A stretch of DNA of 64,000 nucleotides, from positions 32,001 to 96,000 of IMG/VR virus record IMGVR_UViG_3300000439_000004; one strand, 5' to 3'. This DNA is from a virus. Taxonomy: Duplodnaviria; Caudoviricetes. The translations under genes and the position numbers were made by a program. Of the stretch, positions 3,245-29,549 are shown piece by piece. The number at the start of each line of letters is the position of its first letter. The first letter of the stretch is position 1. The notes under the pieces are model-generated. The model made no database searches, had not been told where the DNA came from, and saw only the letters and a program-made list of their open reading frames with translations.

Positions 3245-3257
3245 ATTAATTAATTTG

Positions 3258-3328
3258 TATTTCGTATCAGATTCGAACTGACAACTAATCTTTTAGAGAG
3301 ATGTATTTTACCGTTAAACTAACGAAAC
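3258..3328 (-). tRNA. Amber suppressor tRNA (anticodon CTA)
   Basis: GTTTCGT/ACGAAAT acceptor, D-loop GG, anticodon arm ATCT-CTCTAAA-AGAT, T-loop TTCGAAT. Confidence 0.75.
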
Positions 3329-7897: not shown

Positions 7898-8362
7898 TTA
7901 CAAACGAACTAAATGATTTGCAGCATAGGTCATAATTGCACCTAAGTGTTTATATCTGACTTTATAACCACAAGACTCAACCATACCAACCGCTTGTCTA
8001 AGTGTTGCATTAGATTTATATTTTGGATCTGGATTTAAGTCAATATCTATCCATTGTGGTTTTGGTAAACCATTATCTTTAAGATATTCAGCTAATTCAA
8101 TTGATTTCCAAACTTCAGTTAATAATCTTGTTGCAGTATTTCTCTCCATTGGAACTGTCTCACGACTACATAAAACATGGGCACCTTTACCCTTTGTATA
8201 TAATGCAATTACTACACCATATACTGTTTTTTTATTTCCATAACATTGTGAATCTGATCCGATTAAGATTTCTACATCTTCTCTGTTTGATAAGTAATCT
8301 TTTACATAATCAACTACATTTGGTATCGGAGTACCATAAAGTGTTCTAAATTTCCGTTCCAT
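7898..8362 (-). CDS. RNase H-like YkuK/DUF458 family protein
   Basis: IGSDSQ, EVWKSIELA, IDIDLN, AANHLVR motifs. Confidence 0.8.
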   Translation of the reverse strand: MERKFRTLYGTPIPNVVDYVKDYLSNREDVEILIGSDSQCYGNKKTVYGVVIALYTKGKGAHVLCSRETVPMERNTATRLLTEVWKSIELAEYLKDNGLPKPQWIDIDLNPDPKYKSNATLRQAVGMVESCGYKVRYKHLGAIMTYAANHLVRL

Positions 8363-13657: not shown

Positions 13658-14347
13658 ATGAAACATACATATACACCAGAAGAATATAATAACTCAACAC
13701 CAGAAACCGACATTCCACTTATTTGTGTTGGTTGTGATCATATATTCTATGTAAAAAAGAAAACCATAGAAAATAATAAATGGGGTCATAGAACATTTGA
13801 TTTTTGTAATTCCGAATGTCGCAGAGAACATAGAAAAAAAAATATTATGATAACCACCAATTGTACTAATTGTAATACTGTTATAACAAAACTATATTCA
13901 GCAAGTAAACGACATAAAAATACATTTTGTAGTCATTCATGTTCTACGATATATTTAAATTCACATAAAACATTTGGTTATAAACGTTCTAAATTGGAAA
14001 TTTGGATAGAAGAACAATTAACACAAATTTATCCAGAACTGTTAATTAACTATAATAAAAAAGATATTATTAATTCAGAATTAGATATTTATATACCATC
14101 TCTTTCACTAGCATTTGAATTAAACGGTATCTTTCATTATGAACCTGTTTTTAGTAATGAAAGATTAATATCAACACAAATTAACGATTCTTTAAAATTT
14201 AAAAAATGTATTGAAAATAACATATCATTATGTGTTATTGATACATCACAACAAAAATATGTTAAACCATCCACAAGTCAAAAATATTTAGATATTATAA
14301 CTAAAATAATTAATGAAAATTTAATATTAAAAAACAATATTAACTAA
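13658..14347 (+). CDS. Zinc-finger plus PD-(D/E)XK (Vsr/DUF559-like) endonuclease
   Basis: ELDIYIPSLSLAFELNGIFHY motif and Cys clusters. Confidence 0.8.
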   Translation: MKHTYTPEEYNNSTPETDIPLICVGCDHIFYVKKKTIENNKWGHRTFDFCNSECRREHRKKNIMITTNCTNCNTVITKLYSASKRHKNTFCSHSCSTIYLNSHKTFGYKRSKLEIWIEEQLTQIYPELLINYNKKDIINSELDIYIPSLSLAFELNGIFHYEPVFSNERLISTQINDSLKFKKCIENNISLCVIDTSQQKYVKPSTSQKYLDIITKIINENLILKNNIN

Positions 14348-14371: not shown

Positions 14372-14415
14372 AAACAAAAAACCCGAACTTATTTTTTTAT
14401 TAGTAAGTTCGGGTT
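14372..14415 (-). terminator. Attenuator terminator of tRNA operon 1
   Basis: AACCCGAACTTA/TAAGTTCGGGTT 12-bp stem followed by TTTTGTTTT. Confidence 0.85.
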
Positions 14416-14439
14416 ATATTTTTTAGAAATTAATCTATT

Positions 14440-14541
14440 TTATATTTTATATTCCGAACATACTATACTTTGCACATTTCCTCTATTGCCGTTATATAAC
14501 GGGTTAGGGTTAAGTGTTAGTATGTTCGTCAATAATTTCAT
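14440..14541 (-). CDS. Leader peptide 1 (33 aa, MKLLTNILTLNPNPLYNGNRGNVQSIVCSEYKI)
   Basis: Lies between promoter TATATTTG (14560-14567) and terminator; contains antiterminator TAGTATGTTCGG and protector CGAACATACTA. Confidence 0.8.
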   Translation of the reverse strand: MKLLTNILTLNPNPLYNGNRGNVQSIVCSEYKI

Positions 14542-14696
14542 CTTACTAATAATTATATGCAAATATACGAAAAGTTTTTCAAACTACAAAATATTTTTAT
14601 TTTTTTTTTATTATACTTTGTTTTCGTACTTTGATGAGGCAAATATAAGTGAAATATTTGGAATAATAAAATGTTTTTTAAAATATTTATTTATAA

Positions 14697-16829: not shown

Positions 16830-17282
16830 ATGAATATGATTAAAATTATAAATTTAATTAACGAAATTATTTCTGAAACAAAAATATTATATTTTGCATA
16901 TGGTTCCAATATGGATGTTGAAAGAATGAAAAAAAGATGTCCTGATGCAAAAAAATTATCTGATGGAACTTTACATGGTTGGGATGCATTTTTTGATGAG
17001 GATGGTGTTGCATCAATTAAAAAATCAACAAAAAATGATTATGTAAATGGTGTGGTTTGGGAAATTAAAAAATCAGATATAAAAATATTGGATAAAAAAG
17101 AAGGTGTTAAAGTTGGTGATTATAAAGAAAGTCATGTTAATGTTAAAACACCTGATGGAATAAAAAAATGTTTGGTTTATATTGCATTAGATAAAAAACC
17201 TGGTAAACCAAAAAAAGAATATGTTAAATTAGTTAAAAAGGGAGAAAAGGAAAATAAAATAAAAAACACATTTACAAAATAA
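16830..17282 (+). CDS. Gamma-glutamylcyclotransferase (AIG2-like)
   Basis: YFAYGSNM...LDKKEG motifs. Confidence 0.85.
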   Translation: MNMIKIINLINEIISETKILYFAYGSNMDVERMKKRCPDAKKLSDGTLHGWDAFFDEDGVASIKKSTKNDYVNGVVWEIKKSDIKILDKKEGVKVGDYKESHVNVKTPDGIKKCLVYIALDKKPGKPKKEYVKLVKKGEKENKIKNTFTK

Positions 17283-17963: not shown

Positions 17964-18039
17964 TGGAGCCAAAGACAGGGTTCGAACCTGCGACCTGATC
18001 ATTACAAATGACCGGCTCTACCAACTGAGCTACTTGGGC
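17964..18039 (-). tRNA. trnT: tRNA-Thr(TGT), encoded CCA
   Basis: GGTCA-TTTGTAA-TGATC arm. Confidence 0.95.
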
Positions 18040-18244
18040 GTTTGACACCTTTATTTATCCAACTTACAGGTGTCGTAGCTGTCCCTTTTCAGGTTAGGAA
18101 TAGACTTCATGGGTTACTATTTATTCCCGCTTTCAGTAGATAGTCAATCTAAATAGAACATTGTCCTATAATCAGTCCTATATGGTCATCACTCCATTTC
18201 TCATCGTATAAGGCATACTATCCGTTGTCATGTTTCGGATCGTG

Positions 18245-18316
18245 TAGCGGGGAGTGGGTTCGAACCACTGACCTAAAGGTTATGAGCCTTCCGAGCTACC
18301 GCTGCTCTACCCCGCA
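18245..18316 (-). tRNA. trnM: tRNA-Met(CAT), initiator-like
   Basis: 1-72 mismatch, GCGGGGTAGAGCAG body, CTCATAA loop. Confidence 0.9.
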
Positions 18317-18324
18317 ATCTCTAT

Positions 18325-18774
18325 TTATGTAAAACTATTAATTATTTCTTTAACAGTATTTGCATCTGACATACCAGGAAAAGATTTATTAAATAATCCA
18401 ATTGCTTTTCCAATTTTCTTATTAATATTGGATTCATCACTTAAAGAATCCAATATCTTTTTTATTTCAATTTCCATTTCTTCTTTTGTTAAAGGTTTTG
18501 GCATATATTTTTCCAAAACTAACATTTCATTTTTTTCATTTTCAGACAAATCTAAACGATTACCTTTGATGAATTCATCATAAGATTGTTTTCTTTGTTT
18601 GATACAATTTGAAATTACCTTCAAAATACTTTCTTCAGTTAATTCTTGATTAGAATTTAACTTTTCTGATTCAGTAATTTTTGATTTTAAACTACTCAAA
18701 GCATTTTTTGTTACTTGATCTTTTGCTTTCATTGCAACAACAAAATCATTTTGTATTTGTTCTTTTAATTTCAT
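18325..18774 (-). CDS. GatB/YqeY domain protein
   Basis: AMKAKD...KQRKQS...E..VLEKYMPK motifs. Confidence 0.88.
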   Translation of the reverse strand: MKLKEQIQNDFVVAMKAKDQVTKNALSSLKSKITESEKLNSNQELTEESILKVISNCIKQRKQSYDEFIKGNRLDLSENEKNEMLVLEKYMPKPLTKEEMEIEIKKILDSLSDESNINKKIGKAIGLFNKSFPGMSDANTVKEIINSFT

Positions 18775-18841
18775 TTCTTTATGTTTTTTAATTTAACAAT
18801 GCAAATATAGATAAAAATTTTTAAATAAAAAAAAATATTTG

Positions 18842-18999
18842 TTCCGTAACCAGGAATCGAACCTGGGATCTCCGCCACATGCACGGCGGTGAGATTTAGC
18901 CTTTCTTCACTTGATATGAGTAACTTTTGTTTTTGCGTTGCTCACCGCTCGAACATATAAACTCATTCATCCGATTTGCTTCCACTTCTCTACTACGGG
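18842..18999 (-). ncRNA. 158-nt tRNA-like RNA with a large D-loop insertion and 8-nt anticodon loop
   Basis: CCCGTAG/TTACGGA acceptor, GAGA/TCTC D stem, CCGCC-GTGCATGT-GGCGG, CCAGG-TTCGATT-CCTGG. Confidence 0.7.
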
Positions 19000-19009
19000 A
19001 AAGTTATAG

Positions 19010-19082
19010 TTGCTACGTCTGGGAATCGAACCCAGTTATTTTGGCTTATGAGACCAACGAAATACCTTACCTCCCACCAGCT
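19010..19082 (-). tRNA. tRNA-Met(CAT) with bulged acceptor stem
   Basis: TTGGT-CTCATAA-GCCAA arm. Confidence 0.7.
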
Positions 19083-19095
19083 ATTTATTGTACTT

Positions 19096-19172
19096 TGGTA
19101 GCGTATATTGGATTTGAACCAATGAATGTATCCTTATGAGAGATATGTGTTCGACCACTTCACCAATACGCC
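19096..19172 (-). tRNA. tRNA-CAT on a Glu/Asp-like body, encoded CCA
   Basis: TATCT-CTCATAA-GGATA arm. Confidence 0.8.
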
Positions 19173-19255
19173 AAAAGAGCCCCGATATTTTCATAAGTAC
19201 TTAATCTTCATTTACCTGGCTCGGGGCCACACTGGTAAATTACTTCCTTACTTTG

Positions 19256-19346
19256 CGGAGAAGATAGGACTCGAACCTACACACCAGCTCATCACCGATG
19301 ACCCGTTTTCAAGACGAGGCCGATACCAATTTCGGTTTACTTCTCC
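19256..19346 (-). tRNA. trnS: tRNA-Ser(TGA)
   Basis: CTCGT-CTTGAAA-ACGGG, long variable arm, G73. Confidence 0.92.
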
Positions 19347-19463
19347 ATTAAAACAAATACAAAAAAGTCCAAAAGGGTGATTAACCAGGTATGATCTGGC
19401 ACTCTTCTGCTCCACAAACAGACGCTTTAATTCCATTTAAGCGATAACCACCATGTATATATG

Positions 19464-19611
19464 TGTTGATAATGGGATTTGAACCCACAAGTTGGTGACT
19501 AAATCAACAATTATTTTCATTGTCATCTGGTTTACTAAAACAGGAAATCCATAAATGGTCCAAATATTTTCCTCAAACAGTAATCATGTTTACCAATTCC
19601 ATCACATCAAC
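19464..19611 (-). ncRNA. 148-nt tRNA-like RNA (Leu-type D arm) with expanded anticodon/variable region
   Basis: GTTGATG/TATCAAC acceptor, GGAATTGGTAAAC D-loop, GTGGG-TTCAAAT-CCCAT T arm. Confidence 0.7.
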
Positions 19612-19707
19612 AATATAAAAAATAAACATTGCTATCAGGGTTTAAATGTCGCTCGGAATGACTTACTGACACCAACTGATTTTACAGTTTCTTAGTTTAT
19701 TTTTTTG

Positions 19708-19788
19708 AGGCCAAGGTCAGATTCGAACTGACGTGTTTAATATATCGGGTTTGCAATCCGACCTCTTCAACCACTCGAGCACTTGACC
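19708..19788 (-). tRNA. trnC: tRNA-Cys(GCA)
   Basis: TTGCAAA loop, U73, enlarged variable loop. Confidence 0.88.
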
Positions 19789-19801
19789 ATGTTTTTTTTA
19801 G

Positions 19802-19875
19802 AAGTCTCAGAGGGATTTGAACCCATCAACCTCTCGTTTCGTAGACGAGTGCTCTTCCAATTGAGCTATGAGACC
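19802..19875 (-). tRNA. trnR: tRNA-Arg(ACG)
   Basis: CTCGT-CTACGAA-ACGAG arm. Confidence 0.9.
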
Positions 19876-19880
19876 AATTG

Positions 19881-19962
19881 CACACCACACCCGACTCGAA
19901 CAGGTATTGAGAAACTCTCACGATTTTGGAGATCGCTGCATTACCAATTATGCTAGTGATGT
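19881..19962 (-). tRNA. trnW: tRNA-Trp(CCA) with variable-arm hairpin
   Basis: GCGAT-CTCCAAA-ATCGT arm, G73. Confidence 0.88.
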
Positions 19963-20042
19963 GTTTTTATTTTATTTCTTGTAATTGTTTTCTTAAATCT
20001 TGAATTTTTGTTAAGTAACCTGATACTGATATTTCAGCAGTG

Positions 20043-20234
20043 TTAGATATTTTTTGTTTCAGATTTGTTTTCATTTCTTCTTTTTTTATATAAATGATAA
20101 TCAAATCCTACTTCATTACATAATTTTTTTATTTTTTCACAATTTCTATATTTATCATCATTATATAATTTTCTAGCACCATCATTTAATGATACACAAT
20201 TATTTAAAAAATTTAAAATTTCATCTTTATTCAT
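20043..20234 (-). pseudogene. Probable truncated N-terminus of a homing endonuclease
   Basis: MNKDEILNFLNNCVSLND... resembles the N-termini of neighbouring HNH genes; no catalytic domain. Confidence 0.4.
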
Positions 20235-20296
20235 ATAAATAAATATATGAAAATGTGGTTTAAATGTAAATGGAACCACAATAAAAAAAATTTTTG

Positions 20297-20370
20297 TGTC
20301 AACAACCAGATTCGAACTGGTAACTACTAGGTGCTTCAAACCTAAGCTCTACCATTGGAGCTATGTTGAC
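20297..20370 (-). tRNA. trnF: tRNA-Phe(GAA)
   Basis: TAGGT-TTGAAGC-ACCTA arm. Confidence 0.88.
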
Positions 20371-20455
20371 ATTTTTATCCATATTTCAAAGAACATATAT
20401 CGTTTCCGATTGTTCAGCAAAGATAATAATATTTTTGATTCTACCAAATTTATTT

Positions 20456-21223
20456 TTATTGAATATTTTTATTATATTTTTTATCCCACATTTCTATTCG
20501 TTCTAATAATTGATTGTATGTTAAAATAGATTTTTTGTTTTTAGAAACATTTTCATTATGTATCATTAATTTACAATTTGCCGGATGTGATAATAATTTA
20601 GGATTAATACCTTTATTAAAACCATCTTTAACTGATAACATATGATCCCTACTTACACCACTTAAATTATTACCTCTATTTTTAGGTTTATACCAACCAT
20701 ATTTTTCAATTAACGAAAAATCAAATTCATTTGGATAATCATTCAAACTAAATTTAAAATTGGTTTCTTGTTTATATTTGGCAAATTCAGTCATATCTTT
20801 TTGATTGTTTTGTTTTTTACAATTATCTGAACAAAATTTTTTACGTATTTTTTTTTCTATTAGAATATCACAATTTTTACATTTAATAGTTTTATTTACT
20901 AATTTATTCTTATGTGATATAGACATTCTTTTTTTTGTTTCATTTGTAACTACTCTACCTATATTAGTAAATGAAGTGGAACATGACTGAGAACAAAATG
21001 AATTTCTTCTTTTTTCGTAACTTAAAATTTTATTACATTTTGGATTTAAACAAAATTTTAATTTTTTTTCATAAAGTTCTTTTGTTTTTTCAGTTAACCC
21101 ATTGCCATTTTTACTATAATCTCTTAAATTTTTATTTACATGATAATTTCTACATTTAAAAGAACAATAAATTCTATTGTTTTCAATTTCTTTGTTACAC
21201 TCAATATTTTTACATTTATTCAT
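20456..21223 (-). CDS. Zinc-finger HNH-like homing endonuclease
   Basis: Cys clusters, SRDHMLS...HPANC...N motif. Confidence 0.8.
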   Translation of the reverse strand: MNKCKNIECNKEIENNRIYCSFKCRNYHVNKNLRDYSKNGNGLTEKTKELYEKKLKFCLNPKCNKILSYEKRRNSFCSQSCSTSFTNIGRVVTNETKKRMSISHKNKLVNKTIKCKNCDILIEKKIRKKFCSDNCKKQNNQKDMTEFAKYKQETNFKFSLNDYPNEFDFSLIEKYGWYKPKNRGNNLSGVSRDHMLSVKDGFNKGINPKLLSHPANCKLMIHNENVSKNKKSILTYNQLLERIEMWDKKYNKNIQ

Positions 21224-21278: not shown

Positions 21279-21355
21279 TGGAAGTTACGGTGAACGATAC
21301 CGTCTGATTTCCGCATTGCAAGTGCGGTGACCACACCAATGCAGTCCCAACCCCC
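21279..21355 (-). tRNA. trnA: tRNA-Ala(TGC)
   Basis: G3.U70, CCGCA-CTTGCAA-TGCGG arm. Confidence 0.88.
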
Positions 21356-21431
21356 ATTTAATTCCCCATATTTCAAAGATCAGATGCTCATCCACTAGAG
21401 CTTCACCCCCATTTTTTTTAAAGAACTATAT

Positions 21432-21467
21432 AAACAAAAAAACCTCGGAAGGTTATTCCGAGGTTTT
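21432..21467 (-). terminator. Attenuator terminator of tRNA operon 2
   Basis: AACCTCGGAA/TTCCGAGGTT stem followed by a U tract. Confidence 0.85.
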
Positions 21468-21491
21468 CACTTATAATGTTAAAATTAAAAT

Positions 21492-21593
21492 TTAACTTAA
21501 ATCAGTATCAACAACTCGGAACATAATAATATCACGCTCATCCGCCCATTTTGAACAGATTGTAAACGACATCGTATGTTTGAATTGTTTCAT
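21492..21593 (-). CDS. Leader peptide 2 (33 aa, MKQFKHTMSFTICSKWADERDIIMFRVVDTDLS)
   Basis: Lies between promoter (21656-21663) and terminator; contains antiterminator TGTTCCGAG complementary to CTCGGAATA. Confidence 0.78.
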   Translation of the reverse strand: MKQFKHTMSFTICSKWADERDIIMFRVVDTDLS

Positions 21594-21815
21594 TGAAATT
21601 CTTTTATTTTTTTTACTTTATAATACCTCAGATACTATTTTCTCCGATTGTATTGCAAATATAGATATAAATATTGGAATAAACAAGAAAAGTTCAAAGT
21701 TTTTTAAAAATATTTTTTTTTATTTTATTTTTCCATATTTTTTTAAGATGTTTATATTGTGAAATTAAAAGATTAATAATTCAATCTTTTCTGAATTTTT
21801 AATATATTTATTAAT

Positions 21816-25547: not shown

Positions 25548-26768
25548 TTATTTTTTGGAGATGGTTAATTTGTCTGTTTTATAACGTATTGTTATTTGAC
25601 CATCTTCAATAACATTACCTCTTAAAATTTCTTCACTCAAGAAGTCTTCGCAAAGGTTTTGTATGATCCTTTTGATTGGTCTTGCACCATATTCTTCTTG
25701 GGTATTTAATTCAAAAATCTTATTTGTTACACTTTCATCAAATTTAATTTTATAACCCTTTTCTTTCAAACGATCATTTAATTTATTCAATTCGATAGAA
25801 ATAATTGATTTGATTGTTTCATCATTCAATGGATTGAATAATATTAAATCATCAATACGATTTAAGAATTCAGGTTTGAATTGTTGTTTCAATGATTTTT
25901 GAATCATTGTTTTTCTAACCTCATATCCTTGTTTTTCACTAGTGGCAGTTTTAAACCCTACACCACCACCAAAATCAGATACTTTCTTTGCCCCAACATT
26001 TGATGTCATGATAATGATGGTATTTGTGAAATTAACTTTTCTTCCAAAAGAATCTGTCAAATGACCTTCATCTAATATCTGAAGAAGTAAATTAAACACA
26101 TCAGGGTGAGCTTTCTCAATTTCATCAAATAATATAACTGAGAATGGGTTGTTTTTAACTTTTTCTGTTAATTGACCACCTTCATCATATCCAACATATC
26201 CGGGAGGAGAACCAATTAGTTTTGATACATTGTGTTTTTCCATAAATTCCGTCATATCAATCCTTATCATTTTATTTGGATCACCAAATAATATTTCCGC
26301 AATTGATTTTGCCAGATATGTGTTATGTGATAATATACCATTAGTATAATACCTTCTATTAGAACCTTCTATTAATTCAAGGTCATACATAATTTCCTCA
26401 TAACCTAAATTAGATATTTCTAACACTTCAGATTCAATCAATTTACCATCATTATCCGATACCATCACAAATGAACCAAATTTTAAGTCTTTAACAAATA
26501 CTTCGGTTAAACCAATTGGTTCAAATGTAGTTTCATCATAATCAATAAGAAAAATAATATGATTATCTGCACATTTAAGTTCTTTGCCGTCTTTTAATTT
26601 AAGATGATAAACTTCGTATGGTATTGTTTCATGAAGGGATTCTATATCAACAAACCCATCATCAGTTAAAACTTCATACTCACTAATTTTAGTTGTTTTA
26701 GTGATCTTTTTTAATGAATCAAGTTCATTTTTTACAATTAAGTTGTTTAATTTTTCTTTTTTTATCAT
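25548..26768 (-). CDS. Clp ATPase C-terminal part preceded by a 149-aa C-intein (26322-26768)
   Basis: CADNH...YYTNGILSHN/T then YLAKSIAE, DMTEF, ILFDEIEKAHPDV, GARP. Confidence 0.92.
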   Translation of the reverse strand: MIKKEKLNNLIVKNELDSLKKITKTTKISEYEVLTDDGFVDIESLHETIPYEVYHLKLKDGKELKCADNHIIFLIDYDETTFEPIGLTEVFVKDLKFGSFVMVSDNDGKLIESEVLEISNLGYEEIMYDLELIEGSNRRYYTNGILSHNTYLAKSIAEILFGDPNKMIRIDMTEFMEKHNVSKLIGSPPGYVGYDEGGQLTEKVKNNPFSVILFDEIEKAHPDVFNLLLQILDEGHLTDSFGRKVNFTNTIIIMTSNVGAKKVSDFGGGVGFKTATSEKQGYEVRKTMIQKSLKQQFKPEFLNRIDDLILFNPLNDETIKSIISIELNKLNDRLKEKGYKIKFDESVTNKIFELNTQEEYGARPIKRIIQNLCEDFLSEEILRGNVIEDGQITIRYKTDKLTISKK

Positions 26769-26794
26769 TTGTTTAATTTTTTACAAATATACGT

Positions 26795-28012
26795 TTATTT
26801 TTTTAAAAATAATAAACATTTTTTTAATACTTCTTCTTTATTACCCCATCTATATTCGGAATCCCATATAACTAAAACATCAAACCCATTTTGTTTTGCA
26901 CAATTTAATTTTAATTCATCTTTATCCCACATCTCTTGTGCTGTAATGGTTTTTATAAACGGATGTGGATAATCATCAGCTTTATATTTATTTGGATTTC
27001 CATGAAACATATCACCATGAAATTCAATTATCCGTTTATTTTTAATATCGGTAAAATCATATAACCAAACACCACCTTCTTTTTTAGTTAATTTAAACTC
27101 ACTATTATGTGTTGCGAAATGAACTTTATCCCTATTACTAATATCATATGTTTCTAAAATTTTATAGAACAAATCTTGAGATATTTTAGAATATCCAATA
27201 ACTATATTACCATTGGTTAATAACGATTTTAACCATTTATTTTGTCTTTCAGTAAAACGTTTTTTACCTTCTTCTTCACCATACTTTGCAATGCATTTTT
27301 CAAGACTAAAAGTTGACTGATGTTCTGATACATTTTGTTTTGCATCTTCTTTTGAATAACCTTTATTAACCCAATATTCTATATTGGATGGAATTAGTCT
27401 TTTTTCAAAATCAACTTGTTTCGCAGATTCAGTTTGGTTTTTACTAATAATGTCTTTTGCCTCATTTTCAGAACACCCCTTATTAACCCAGAATTCAGAA
27501 TTTGTTGGTGTTAAACAAATACGTTTTATTTCTTCTTCGGTGTAACCTTTATCAGCTAACATTTTTTTAGATTTACCATGATAAGTTTTAACACATTTAG
27601 ATGATTTTTGTTGCTGTTTAGATATTTCTTTATTAGCTTCTTCTATAGAATAACCCTTATTTATCCAATATTCCTTACATAAACGATTCCTTTGTTTTAA
27701 TTCTTCATTACGTTTATCCAATTCAACCAAAGCGTCTTTATCATTCCAACCACGTTCAATCCAATATCCTAATTCTCCCCATTTTTTAGTTTTAAAACCA
27801 TAATTTTTAACCAACCAACCACGCATTAACGATAACGAAACAACACCTTCTTGTTCTTGTAATTTAATTATTAATGATTCCATTTCTTTTTTAATCGTTT
27901 CATTATCGTAGCGTATGTTTTTATCTAATTTTAAAACATGGTCTTTAAACGTTTCTAAATCTGGAAACACTTCAGTCACTTCTTTAATTCCTTTACTTGT
28001 TTTTATCTTCAT
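26795..28012 (-). CDS. Free-standing Vsr/DUF559-like endonuclease between split-intein halves
   Basis: Repeated YWINKGYS; YDF...IIEFHGDMFH...VIWDSE motifs. Confidence 0.8.
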   Translation of the reverse strand: MKIKTSKGIKEVTEVFPDLETFKDHVLKLDKNIRYDNETIKKEMESLIIKLQEQEGVVSLSLMRGWLVKNYGFKTKKWGELGYWIERGWNDKDALVELDKRNEELKQRNRLCKEYWINKGYSIEEANKEISKQQQKSSKCVKTYHGKSKKMLADKGYTEEEIKRICLTPTNSEFWVNKGCSENEAKDIISKNQTESAKQVDFEKRLIPSNIEYWVNKGYSKEDAKQNVSEHQSTFSLEKCIAKYGEEEGKKRFTERQNKWLKSLLTNGNIVIGYSKISQDLFYKILETYDISNRDKVHFATHNSEFKLTKKEGGVWLYDFTDIKNKRIIEFHGDMFHGNPNKYKADDYPHPFIKTITAQEMWDKDELKLNCAKQNGFDVLVIWDSEYRWGNKEEVLKKCLLFLKK

Positions 28013-28058
28013 GACATATATTTTATAATAAATATCATGAAGTTTTAAAAAGTTAGGA

Positions 28059-29396
28059 CTAATTGGTGTCGGGTACTATATTTTTTATATCAATCGTTTT
28101 TATCTCACCAGTTACTTTGTTTCTAACAGTTATTTTTGTATCACCACAAATACACTTACCAACACCAGTAGAACCTAAGAACATAAATGAACCGATTGGT
28201 TTATTTGTATCTTTAATTCCCACTCTATTTCTTCTGATAGATTTTGCAATTATTGAAATTGCTTCTTCTTGACCGATAACTTTCTTATTAAGAATTTCTT
28301 CCATCTTTAAAAGTTTTTCAGTTTCCTTATTGTCAAGTTTTGCAATCGGAACACCGGTCATTTCTGTTATGATATGATAAACATCATCAACTGAAATTAC
28401 TTTTTTATTTAATTTACATTCTTCCTCAAATTTGGCTTTGATTTCAATTATTTTATTTGCCAATTTCTTTCCTTCATCTCTCAATCTTGCTGCATCTTCA
28501 AAATTCTGACTTCTTACAACCAATTTCTTTTGCTCATTGATTTTTTCAATTTCAGCATTAATTTTATCAACTTCTTCTGGTAGTTTTGTTGAGATCTTCT
28601 TTTCAGAACCCAATTCATCCATGATATCAATTGATTTATCAGGGAATTGTCTATCTGTAATAAATCTACCAGACAATTTAACAATGGTTTCTATAACATT
28701 ATCATTATATGATACCATATGGAAATTCTCATAAGAAGTTTTTAAGTTCTTTAAGATTTCTATTGTTTCCAATTCTGTTGGTTCATTAAGAATAATCTTT
28801 TGGAATCTTCTTACCAAAGCAGAATCTTTTTCGATATGTTTTTTATATTCATCGAAAGTCGTTGCTCCGATGCATTGTATTTCACCACGTGCCAAAGCGG
28901 GTTTAAGGATATTTGCTGCATCCATTGCACCACTTGCATTACCAGCACCTACCATTGTATGTAATTCATCAATGAATACAATAACGTTGGTAACACCTTC
29001 CAATTCATTTAAGATTGCTTTAATACGTTCTTCAAATTGTCCTCTGTATTTTGTACCAGCAACTAATGAGGTTAAATCCAAGGACATGATTCTTTTATCT
29101 AATAGATTAGAAGGACAATCACCTTTATATATCATTAGTGCAAGTTTTTCAACTAATGCAGATTTACCAACACCCGCATCACCAACAATAACTGCATTGT
29201 TCTTCTTCTTACGAGATAGAATTTGTGCAATACGTTTAACTTCTAAATCTCTACCTATAATAGGGTCAATCTTTCCTTCCTCTGCCAACTTAACAAGGTC
29301 TCTGGAAAAATTATCCAAAATAGGTGTGTTTGAACCCTTCTTAGTTTTTTTAGGGTTAGTGGGTTGTTGACCCTCTTCGTAATAATCTACTGACAT
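28059..29396 (-). CDS. ClpA/B/C-family ATPase N-terminal part ending in a 31-aa N-intein (28062-28154)
   Basis: GDAGVGKS, FIDELH, UVR-like linker, second Walker A GSTGVGK/CICGDT. Confidence 0.92.
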   Translation of the reverse strand: MSVDYYEEGQQPTNPKKTKKGSNTPILDNFSRDLVKLAEEGKIDPIIGRDLEVKRIAQILSRKKKNNAVIVGDAGVGKSALVEKLALMIYKGDCPSNLLDKRIMSLDLTSLVAGTKYRGQFEERIKAILNELEGVTNVIVFIDELHTMVGAGNASGAMDAANILKPALARGEIQCIGATTFDEYKKHIEKDSALVRRFQKIILNEPTELETIEILKNLKTSYENFHMVSYNDNVIETIVKLSGRFITDRQFPDKSIDIMDELGSEKKISTKLPEEVDKINAEIEKINEQKKLVVRSQNFEDAARLRDEGKKLANKIIEIKAKFEEECKLNKKVISVDDVYHIITEMTGVPIAKLDNKETEKLLKMEEILNKKVIGQEEAISIIAKSIRRNRVGIKDTNKPIGSFMFLGSTGVGKCICGDTKITVRNKVTGEIKTIDIKNIVPDTN

Positions 29397-29549
29397 AATT
29401 AAAATTTTATTTGTGCAAACATAACCCAAAAAATAATCCAAACAAAATATTTTTTTATTTTTGTCAAATTGTCAAACATATATGTCAAAAAGTCCATTTT
29501 TTTTATTTGGTATTTAAATTGATAATTTATGAGAAAAAATTAATAAATT

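Follow-up and report, generated by a model that had tools for sequence, protein, structure and literature searches.

Organization of the leader-2 unit and its tRNA array

The analyzed sequence, referred to as the window, is a stretch of 64,000 nucleotides from a 162-kb IMG/VR virus record with a completeness estimate of 52 % and a G+C content of 28 %. Genes for a terminase, a major head protein and a Lon-like protease are present in this phage record, and ORFs for homing endonucleases are numerous in it. DNA similarity to GenBank phages was restricted to mobile ORFs in common with Lak megaphages. The Lon-like ATP-dependent protease is spread over two ORFs on the minus strand (29441-28059 and 26768-25548; region 25548-29441) with a 405-aa ORF between them, and the gene may have been split by a mobile element. 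An amber-suppressor tRNA with the anticodon CTA lies at 3257-3328 (minus strand); the ORFs of the window are nonetheless long under translation table 11. A tmRNA gene was detected by ARAGORN in the record outside the window (G000:C1:28544-28944), and the relative L043 also has one.

Two tRNA arrays of the window, here called array 1 and array 2, are preceded by leader 1 and leader 2, respectively. The leader-2 unit consists of a Bacteroidota-type promoter, an A-rich 5' leader that is about 30 nt longer than in relatives, a short ORF and a putative intrinsic terminator directly ahead of the array (Table 1). The positions that a first-pass annotation had given for promoter, ORF, terminator and array held, and all parts lie on the minus strand as it had described. 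Between positions 8000 and 24000, 14 terminator-like sites were found compared to 5.0 +/- 2.5 in shuffled sequences, and the folding of the leader-2 transcript is better than that of its shuffles (z -4.2). Rfam had no family for either leader, and the leader-2 unit had no match in Pfam. A G-U-rich hairpin at about 21549-21533, which has homologs in relatives, covers the Cys-Ser-Lys-Trp-Ala codons of leader 2. A reading of the unit with a sigma-70 promoter was dropped, as such sites showed no excess over shuffled sequences; a group I intron and a plain bidirectional terminator for the neighboring genes were also considered and dropped as explanations of the unit.

Table 1. Coordinates of the leader units, array 2 and associated features. 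Positions refer to the window unless another sequence is named.
Feature	Position	Strand	Basis or remark
Bacteroidota-type promoter 2	21656..21687	-	-7 box TATATTTG at 21663-21656, TTG 19 nt upstream
A-rich 5' leader before the start codon	21594..21655	-	alignment with relatives
Leader-2 ORF, 33 codons and TAA	21492..21593	-	ATG at 21593, TAA at 21494-21492
Proposed sensing stretch, codons 2-23	21525..21590	-	codon-class match to array-2 tRNAs
Region 2 (codons 24-27), putative antiterminator strand	21514..21524	-	complementary to the terminator 5' arm
Small stop-codon hairpin GTTAAA/TTTAAC	21478..21496	-	folding; similar hairpins in relatives; role not assigned
Putative intrinsic terminator	21436..21468	-	13-pair stem at 21468-21438, 5-nt loop, 7 T
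First boxA-like word GTTCTTTAAAA	21416..21426	-	resemblance only
Degenerate 5' half of tRNA-Ala	21372..21410	-	aligns with the tRNA-Ala directly 3' of the terminator in relatives
Second boxA-like word TCTTTGAAAT	21370..21379	-	resemblance
Probable tRNA-Ala(TGC), G3:U70, divergent	21279..21355	-	cloverleaf read by eye
255-aa ORF, probable homing endonuclease	20456..21223	-	between tRNA-Ala and tRNA-Phe; similar to Lak phage ORFs
Internal promoter TATCTTTG	20418..20425	-	about 24 nt of surroundings resemble the leader promoter region
Third boxA-like word	20383..20392	-	12 nt 5' of tRNA-Phe
Rest of array 2: Phe, Trp, Arg(ACG), Cys, His, Ser(TGA), three CAT tRNAs, Thr	17964..20370	-	ARAGORN/Rfam
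YqeY-like ORF within array 2	18325-18774	-	Pfam PF09424, E = 2.7e-32
Leader 1	14380-14567	-	promoter, 33-codon ORF 14541-14440, terminator 14415-14380
L037 leader units with terminators	17184-17282 and 19882-19962		contig L037
Lak-A1 region L282	484000-503000	reverse	MK250015.1
Lak-A1 region L283	106500-113000		MK250015.1

The gene content that the first-pass annotation had assigned to array 2 was confirmed only in part. Its three CAT tRNAs are all real, the third one being located at 19081-19011. The tRNA-Ala held partly, with a probable copy at 21355-21279 that was called by neither ARAGORN nor Rfam. The claim that the array lacks His failed, as a tRNA-His(GTG) is present at 19451-19375. For the YqeY-like ORF, no relatives were found by the pattern method. 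The boxA-like pattern has four matches in the window, three of which are situated just 5' of the first tRNA of a unit; in the relative L080, a word comparable to the first of them comes after tRNA-Ala.

Conservation in related phage contigs

First relatives were obtained from 39 related loci drawn via the Lon-like protease, three of which have the leader next to tRNA-Ala. A degenerate pattern derived from the leader-2 ORF was then applied to viral contigs and returned 43 loci, 25 of them distinct. The S-F-x-x-C-S-K-W codons were fixed in this pattern, so that their invariance follows from the search itself. Furthermore, the contig counts cannot be taken as independent events because the sequences are related.

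With these restrictions, the leader-2 unit was identified in 25 further distinct metagenomic giant-phage contigs, several of which are 200-335 kb long. A lack of leader conservation, combined with orthologous arrays that never contain the missing isoacceptors, had been named in advance by the first-pass annotation as a point that would refute its reading. The TAnnTTTG box is nearly invariant among the aligned relatives (24/25) and sits about 33 nt 5' of the ATG. Across 26 distinct sequences, the ORF comprises 29-34 codons; indels are limited to one of 3 nt and one of 6 nt, and none of the sequences has an internal stop. The terminator begins 23-32 nt past the stop codon and is present in every sequence, with a stem of 11-13 pairs, energies between -13.5 and -18.7 kcal/mol and a tract of T6-9. 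Its stem shows compensatory changes, and three pairs stay paired through two-sided changes. The layout, its conservation and the maintenance of the reading frame are shown by these comparisons; that the terminator works in the host is an inference.

In the relatives, array 2 contains Ala and/or Ile, Phe, Lys, Val or Glu, Trp, Arg(ACG), Cys, His, Met, Met, Thr, Asp, Ser(TGA) and Glu. The first-pass annotation had predicted, as a test, that the orthologous arrays would carry tRNAs for Lys, His, Asp, Glu and Ile(GAT), and all of them were found there. The first tRNA starts only 12-15 nt past the beginning of the T-tract, gaps of 3-30 nt separate the first tRNAs from one another, and nothing resembling a promoter was found between the terminator and these tRNAs in relatives. 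Because of this short spacing and the absence of a promoter in between, the first tRNAs of the relatives can be made only by polymerases that pass the terminator. Further downstream, six contigs (L133, L089, L123, L135, L054, L098) have a TAnnTTTG-like site in the middle of array 2 near the CAT tRNAs, and it is conceivable that one Met-type tRNA, perhaps the initiator, has its own promoter in them.

Other searches did not extend the family. An exact-pattern search for the terminator in viral contigs had no match, and tblastn of the 33-aa peptide against GenBank phage records had none either. In bacterial and archaeal genomes, the matches returned for the leader pattern were attributable to chance, and none of them was a true leader.

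Leader codons match the tRNAs of the downstream array

In the window, 19 of the 20 codons at positions 2-21 of leader 2 belong to tRNA classes of array 2, and they cover 13 of the 14 classes of the family array. Both values together were reached by 0 of 13,649 windows taken from the long ORFs of the phage itself. The match extends to split codon boxes. Arginine is encoded in leader 2 by CGN in 43 cases and by AGA in 12, the latter only at codon 2 or in the tail, compared to a genome background of 107 CGN and 386 AGR. Within its sensing stretch, leader 2 uses CGN, TCN and ATY, and leader 1 uses AGA, AGY (AGT) and ATA. In addition, rare synonymous codons are enriched in both leaders (P = 0.02 for leader 2, P = 0.0002 for leader 1). 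Both the matching of each codon set to its own array and the partition of the split boxes had been proposed in the first-pass annotation; the two claims held, and each leader fits its own array and not the other.

The variation among the leader-2 sequences is not protein-like. The entropies at codon positions 1, 2 and 3 are 0.45, 0.87 and 0.79, and therefore the criterion for purifying selection on a micropeptide, variation mainly at third positions, is failed. Amino acid replacements are non-conservative, with T/I, E/V and R/A being common. Of the 33 class-changing variants, 28 stay inside the classes of array 2, compared to 55 % expected from single-base neighbors (P = 3e-4). Two of the five exceptions are Gln codons, which occur exactly in the two contigs with a Gln tRNA in array 2. 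As the variants stay in the array classes and the pattern is not that of a selected peptide, selection seems to act on which tRNA reads each codon. Such selection would require that the ORF is translated, and translation itself remains inferred from sequence alone.

Leader and array composition also change together. A Val codon occurs in the sensing stretch of leader 2 only where array 2 has Val(TAC); in contigs that lack it, the Val tRNA belongs to array 1 and leader 1 contains a Val codon. L080 has no Thr codon in leader 2 and no Thr tRNA in array 2, and it has a Gln codon at position 8 together with a Gln tRNA in array 2. Gln codons inside the sensing stretch are confined to L080 and L115, the two contigs with Gln(TTG) in array 2. 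For nine complete arrays and 24 classes, a class was present in both leader and array in 107 cases, in neither in 89, in the leader only in 15 and in the array only in five. These counts are affected by the fact that ARAGORN misses some tRNAs, and five of the 15 leader-only cases are Ala, a tRNA missed by this tool. Mismatches exist as well: in some relatives, leader 2 has Thr codons but the Thr tRNA belongs to array 1, the AGT codons of L115 lack a Ser(GCT) tRNA, and no matching tRNAs accompany the Asn, His and Arg codons of L034. Overall, the correspondence of leader codons to array tRNAs and the co-variation of the two are shown by these data.

Further leader types follow the same rule

Leader 1 has homologs in nine relatives, located about 220 nt 5' of tRNA-Leu(TAA) in an identical layout. 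All 25 of its 25 codons fall into array-1 classes, which is the case for 0 of 13,464 background windows. The length of exactly 33 aa in both window leaders, which the first-pass annotation had pointed out, is a coincidence, as leader 1 varies from 31 to 36 codons within its family and leader 2 from 29 to 34. Its view of the two leaders as paralogs is not demonstrated; they have only the layout and the promoter in common. In the window, the insertion of a convergent ORF (13658-14347) separates leader 1 from array 1. This array starts with tRNA-Leu(TAA), which is itself interrupted within its anticodon loop: the two parts (13595-13556 and 12610-12564, minus strand) are separated by about 945 nt containing an ORF for an HNH endonuclease (13499-12642); the Rfam intron models did not match this intervening sequence.

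In a different lineage, represented by L037, L042 and L032, a leader rich in Leu, Asp, Val, Ala, Glu and Trp precedes an array of Asp, Asp, Glu, Glu, Val, Leu, Leu, Ala ... Trp. A second leader of L037 is rich in His, Gln, Arg and Pro and precedes Pro, Arg, Pro, His, Gln, Gln, Gln and Leu. A narrower pattern for type-3 leaders found only the three known contigs. The word TGGGCNGATGAG, encoding W-A-D-E, is common to leader types 2 and 3 and might be a pause signal. In Prevotella phage Lak-A1 (MK250015.1), there are two units in which a micro-ORF and a terminator precede a tRNA array of matched composition; both have a promoter-like upstream region in common. One of its leaders is rich in Met, His, Pro, Cys, Gly and Arg and precedes His, Pro, Arg, Arg, Gly, Cys and Met; the other is rich in Asn, Tyr, Ile, Lys, Asp and Val, with a matching array downstream.

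Taken together, six leader types match their own array: leader 2, leader 1, two in L037 and two in Lak-A1. In each genome, a leader covers 92-100 % of the classes of its own array compared to 9-40 % of those of the neighboring array.

Predicted alternative structures of the leader transcript

The 3' part of the leader-2 ORF is complementary to the terminator. The word TTCCGAG in codons 25-27 can pair with CTCGGAA in the terminator 5' arm, and in total about codons 24-28 are involved. In the window, the resulting antiterminator (-13.1 kcal/mol) is close in energy to the terminator (-15.2 kcal/mol). Across the family, the 3' part of an ORF pairs with its own arm at a mean of -15.0 kcal/mol, compared to -9.1 kcal/mol with arms of the other classes (five arm classes), and the pairing with the own arm has a z of -3.9 against shuffles. 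Therefore, the antiterminator proposed in the first-pass annotation held, and it co-varies with the arm in relatives. The peptide frame of region 2 differs between subgroups and the pairing with the arm is kept, which indicates that the constraint over this region acts on the RNA. This co-variation is shown; condition-dependent read-through as well as the direction and the trigger of the switch are inferred.

For a simulation of the ribosome footprint, the transcript was folded up to the terminator loop and the footprint was masked. With the A site at codons 1-21, the arm is paired to region 2 with p ~0.9. From codon 22 onwards, this pairing is lost (p ~0.2-0.4). The conserved part of the ORF stops right at this simulated boundary.

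Less support was obtained for a protector helix between region 1 and region 2. The window has the AACATA/TATGTT pair claimed by the first-pass annotation (-11.8 kcal/mol, z -1.8), but this pairing is not significant across the leader-2 family (mean z -0.8). Equilibrium folding yields the antiterminator even without a ribosome, so that the untranslated state may read through, unlike in trp. Which structure results depends on kinetics that are not captured by equilibrium folding.

Erosion of the unit in the window

The copy of the leader-2 unit in the window is partly eroded. Its tRNA-Ala is followed by the ORF for the probable endonuclease and by an internal promoter. Four tRNA species are gone: no tRNAs for Ile(GAT), Lys, Asp or Glu were found in the 162-kb record. 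Due to their absence, only 57 % of the sensing codons of the window are served by a phage tRNA, compared to 95 % when scored on the array of L023. The codons without a phage tRNA in the record are nine of the 21 at positions 3-23 (Lys, Asp, Glu and Ile-ATY). A short ORF (19968-20233, minus strand) occupies the gap between tRNA-Phe and tRNA-Trp, where relatives have Lys, Glu, Asp or Val tRNAs.

The internal promoter could bypass the attenuator. This caveat of the first-pass annotation held (20425-20418), and the site is specific to this window. Control by the eroded unit probably persists for tRNA-Ala and the endonuclease ORF, whereas for the tRNAs from Phe to Thr the unit would only add to expression without being the sole control. 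This assignment is an inference from sequence alone.

Proposed mechanism

In its most probable reading, the leader-2 unit controls a phage tRNA operon as a ribosome-mediated transcription attenuator and raises tRNA transcription when decoding is slow. No expression data are available for it, neither transcript ends nor ribosome footprints nor reporter data. In this model, the host RNA polymerase would initiate at the Bacteroidota-type promoter and transcribe the leader ORF of 33 codons. Region 2 would then pair with the 5' arm of the terminator and thereby block the terminator hairpin. A fast ribosome that reaches codon 22 or beyond before the polymerase finishes the terminator would cover region 2, the terminator would form, and the transcript would stop at about 21436. 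A ribosome lingering in codons 2-21 would leave region 2 free, so that the antiterminator forms and the polymerase reads through into tRNA-Ala and the rest of the array. Codons 2-23 are drawn from the classes of the array's own tRNAs, often as rare synonymous codons. Because the codons match the array tRNAs, slow decoding of any sensing codon would raise exactly those tRNA genes. The net effect would be a negative feedback on decoding capacity.

A bolder reading is that giant Bacteroidota phages run a multi-channel sensor of decoding capacity, in which each leader acts as a codon checklist for its tRNA operon, a shortage of any one tRNA resupplies just that set, and the two leaders of this phage family jointly cover all 20 amino acids. 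The evidence tips only narrowly in favor of this extension. Within it, the shortage could conceivably stem from host defenses that cleave tRNAs or from a decay of the host tRNA pool.

Alternative explanations

The alternative that survives best is that the attenuator hardware reports the general translation capacity, such as ribosome availability, host shut-off or amino acid starvation, and that the codon match is a by-product or a fine adjustment. In its favor, any delay in codons 1-21 yields read-through in the footprint simulation, and the leader of the window retains Lys, Asp, Glu and Ile codons though the corresponding phage tRNAs are gone. However, the six leader types match their own and not the neighboring array, Val, Thr and Gln codons move with the tRNA genes, and class-changing substitutions remain in the array classes. 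A general sensor would need none of this matching, and this explanation is therefore considered unlikely.

As a second alternative, the cassette could be an independent micro-gene that is merely adjacent to the array, with a promoter and a terminator of its own and a small peptide or small RNA as product; the tRNAs would then be transcribed from elsewhere. The unit is indeed a complete cassette of promoter, ORF and terminator, there is a further promoter before tRNA-Phe in the window, and leader 1 is separated from its array by the convergent ORF. Against this, the first tRNA of the relatives follows only 12-15 nt after the T-tract begins and no promoter lies in between, second codon positions are as variable as third ones, which does not fit a selected peptide, the C-terminal part shifts frame with the complementarity to the arm kept, and there is no Pfam or Rfam match. 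Such a micro-gene is highly improbable.

Also hard to sustain is a nascent peptide of the erm, cat or tna type that arrests the ribosome on a small molecule or factor and for which codon supply is irrelevant: the 17-20 N-terminal residues of leader 2 are well conserved and the W-A-D-E word recurs in the type-3 leader, but the N-terminal conservation is partly forced by the search pattern, the chemically non-conservative replacements (T/I, E/V, R/A) remain within the tRNA set, and the other leader types are unrelated peptides with an identical codon-to-array logic.

Relation to known systems and significance

A long-standing and unanswered question is why phages carry tRNA genes and when these are expressed. 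According to recent work, phage tRNAs can substitute for host tRNAs that were cut by defense nucleases (PMC10264068, PMC11555353, PMC11464382), and counter-defense of this kind may be a plausible selective reason for gated arrays. If the attenuator reading is true, no regulatory logic of phage tRNA arrays would have been described before it. Leader-peptide attenuation would then reach beyond the supply of amino acids to that of tRNAs, with about fourteen sensed species in place of one to three. Furthermore, the unit would provide a compact natural part for sensing tRNA availability, and the idea is directly testable with reporters. No description of the attenuation of tRNA operons was found in the literature searched; this absence is not a proof of novelty.

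Two other systems were compared. In T-box riboswitches, as in the proposed phage unit, the choice between terminator and antiterminator depends on tRNA status. However, a T-box binds uncharged tRNA directly and without translation, and the phage unit has a conserved ORF instead. The T-box covariance model had no match at the gathering threshold or at E <= 5, and no T-box or specifier structure was found. A boxA consensus and boxA-dependent antitermination are known from rRNA and tRNA operons. Words like TCTTTGAAAT or TCTTTGACAT are located just 5' of the first tRNA of each unit; they are short, the likeness is a resemblance only, and there are no binding data for NusB/S10.

The closest counterparts are the leader attenuators of amino acid operons (trpL, hisL, leuL, pheL and the multivalent thrL and ilvL), for which the comparison rests on textbook knowledge. 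Common to these and leader 2 are a short 5' ORF, whose translation is inferred for leader 2, a terminator and an alternative helix on the terminator 5' arm. In both, the position of the ribosome would choose the helix, as inferred for leader 2, and the regulatory codons name the sensed item. A rare codon, CUA, is used in leuL, and rare codons are also found in the phage leader. None of the Rfam His, Phe, Trp, Thr and Leu leader families was matched at its gathering threshold; the best scores (His and Phe) were 22 bits compared to cut-offs of 49-55 and were driven by the terminator. A leader that acts on the translation apparatus is also known: pheM attenuates pheST, where the target is a synthetase mRNA and the signal is Phe-tRNA alone. 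Both pheM and the proposed phage unit use attenuation to feed back on the decoding machinery, and in the phage the products are the tRNAs themselves.

In contrast to the amino acid attenuators, the phage unit would control tRNA genes and not biosynthetic enzymes. Its leader has one to few codons for each of up to 14 tRNA species, and not a run of codons for one to three amino acids. In addition, it is phage-borne, has Bacteroidota-type promoters and lacks support for a protector helix. Overall, the hardware is that of a classical leader-peptide attenuator, and the unit differs from the known systems in its tRNA-gene target, its breadth of up to 14 species per leader and its phage setting.
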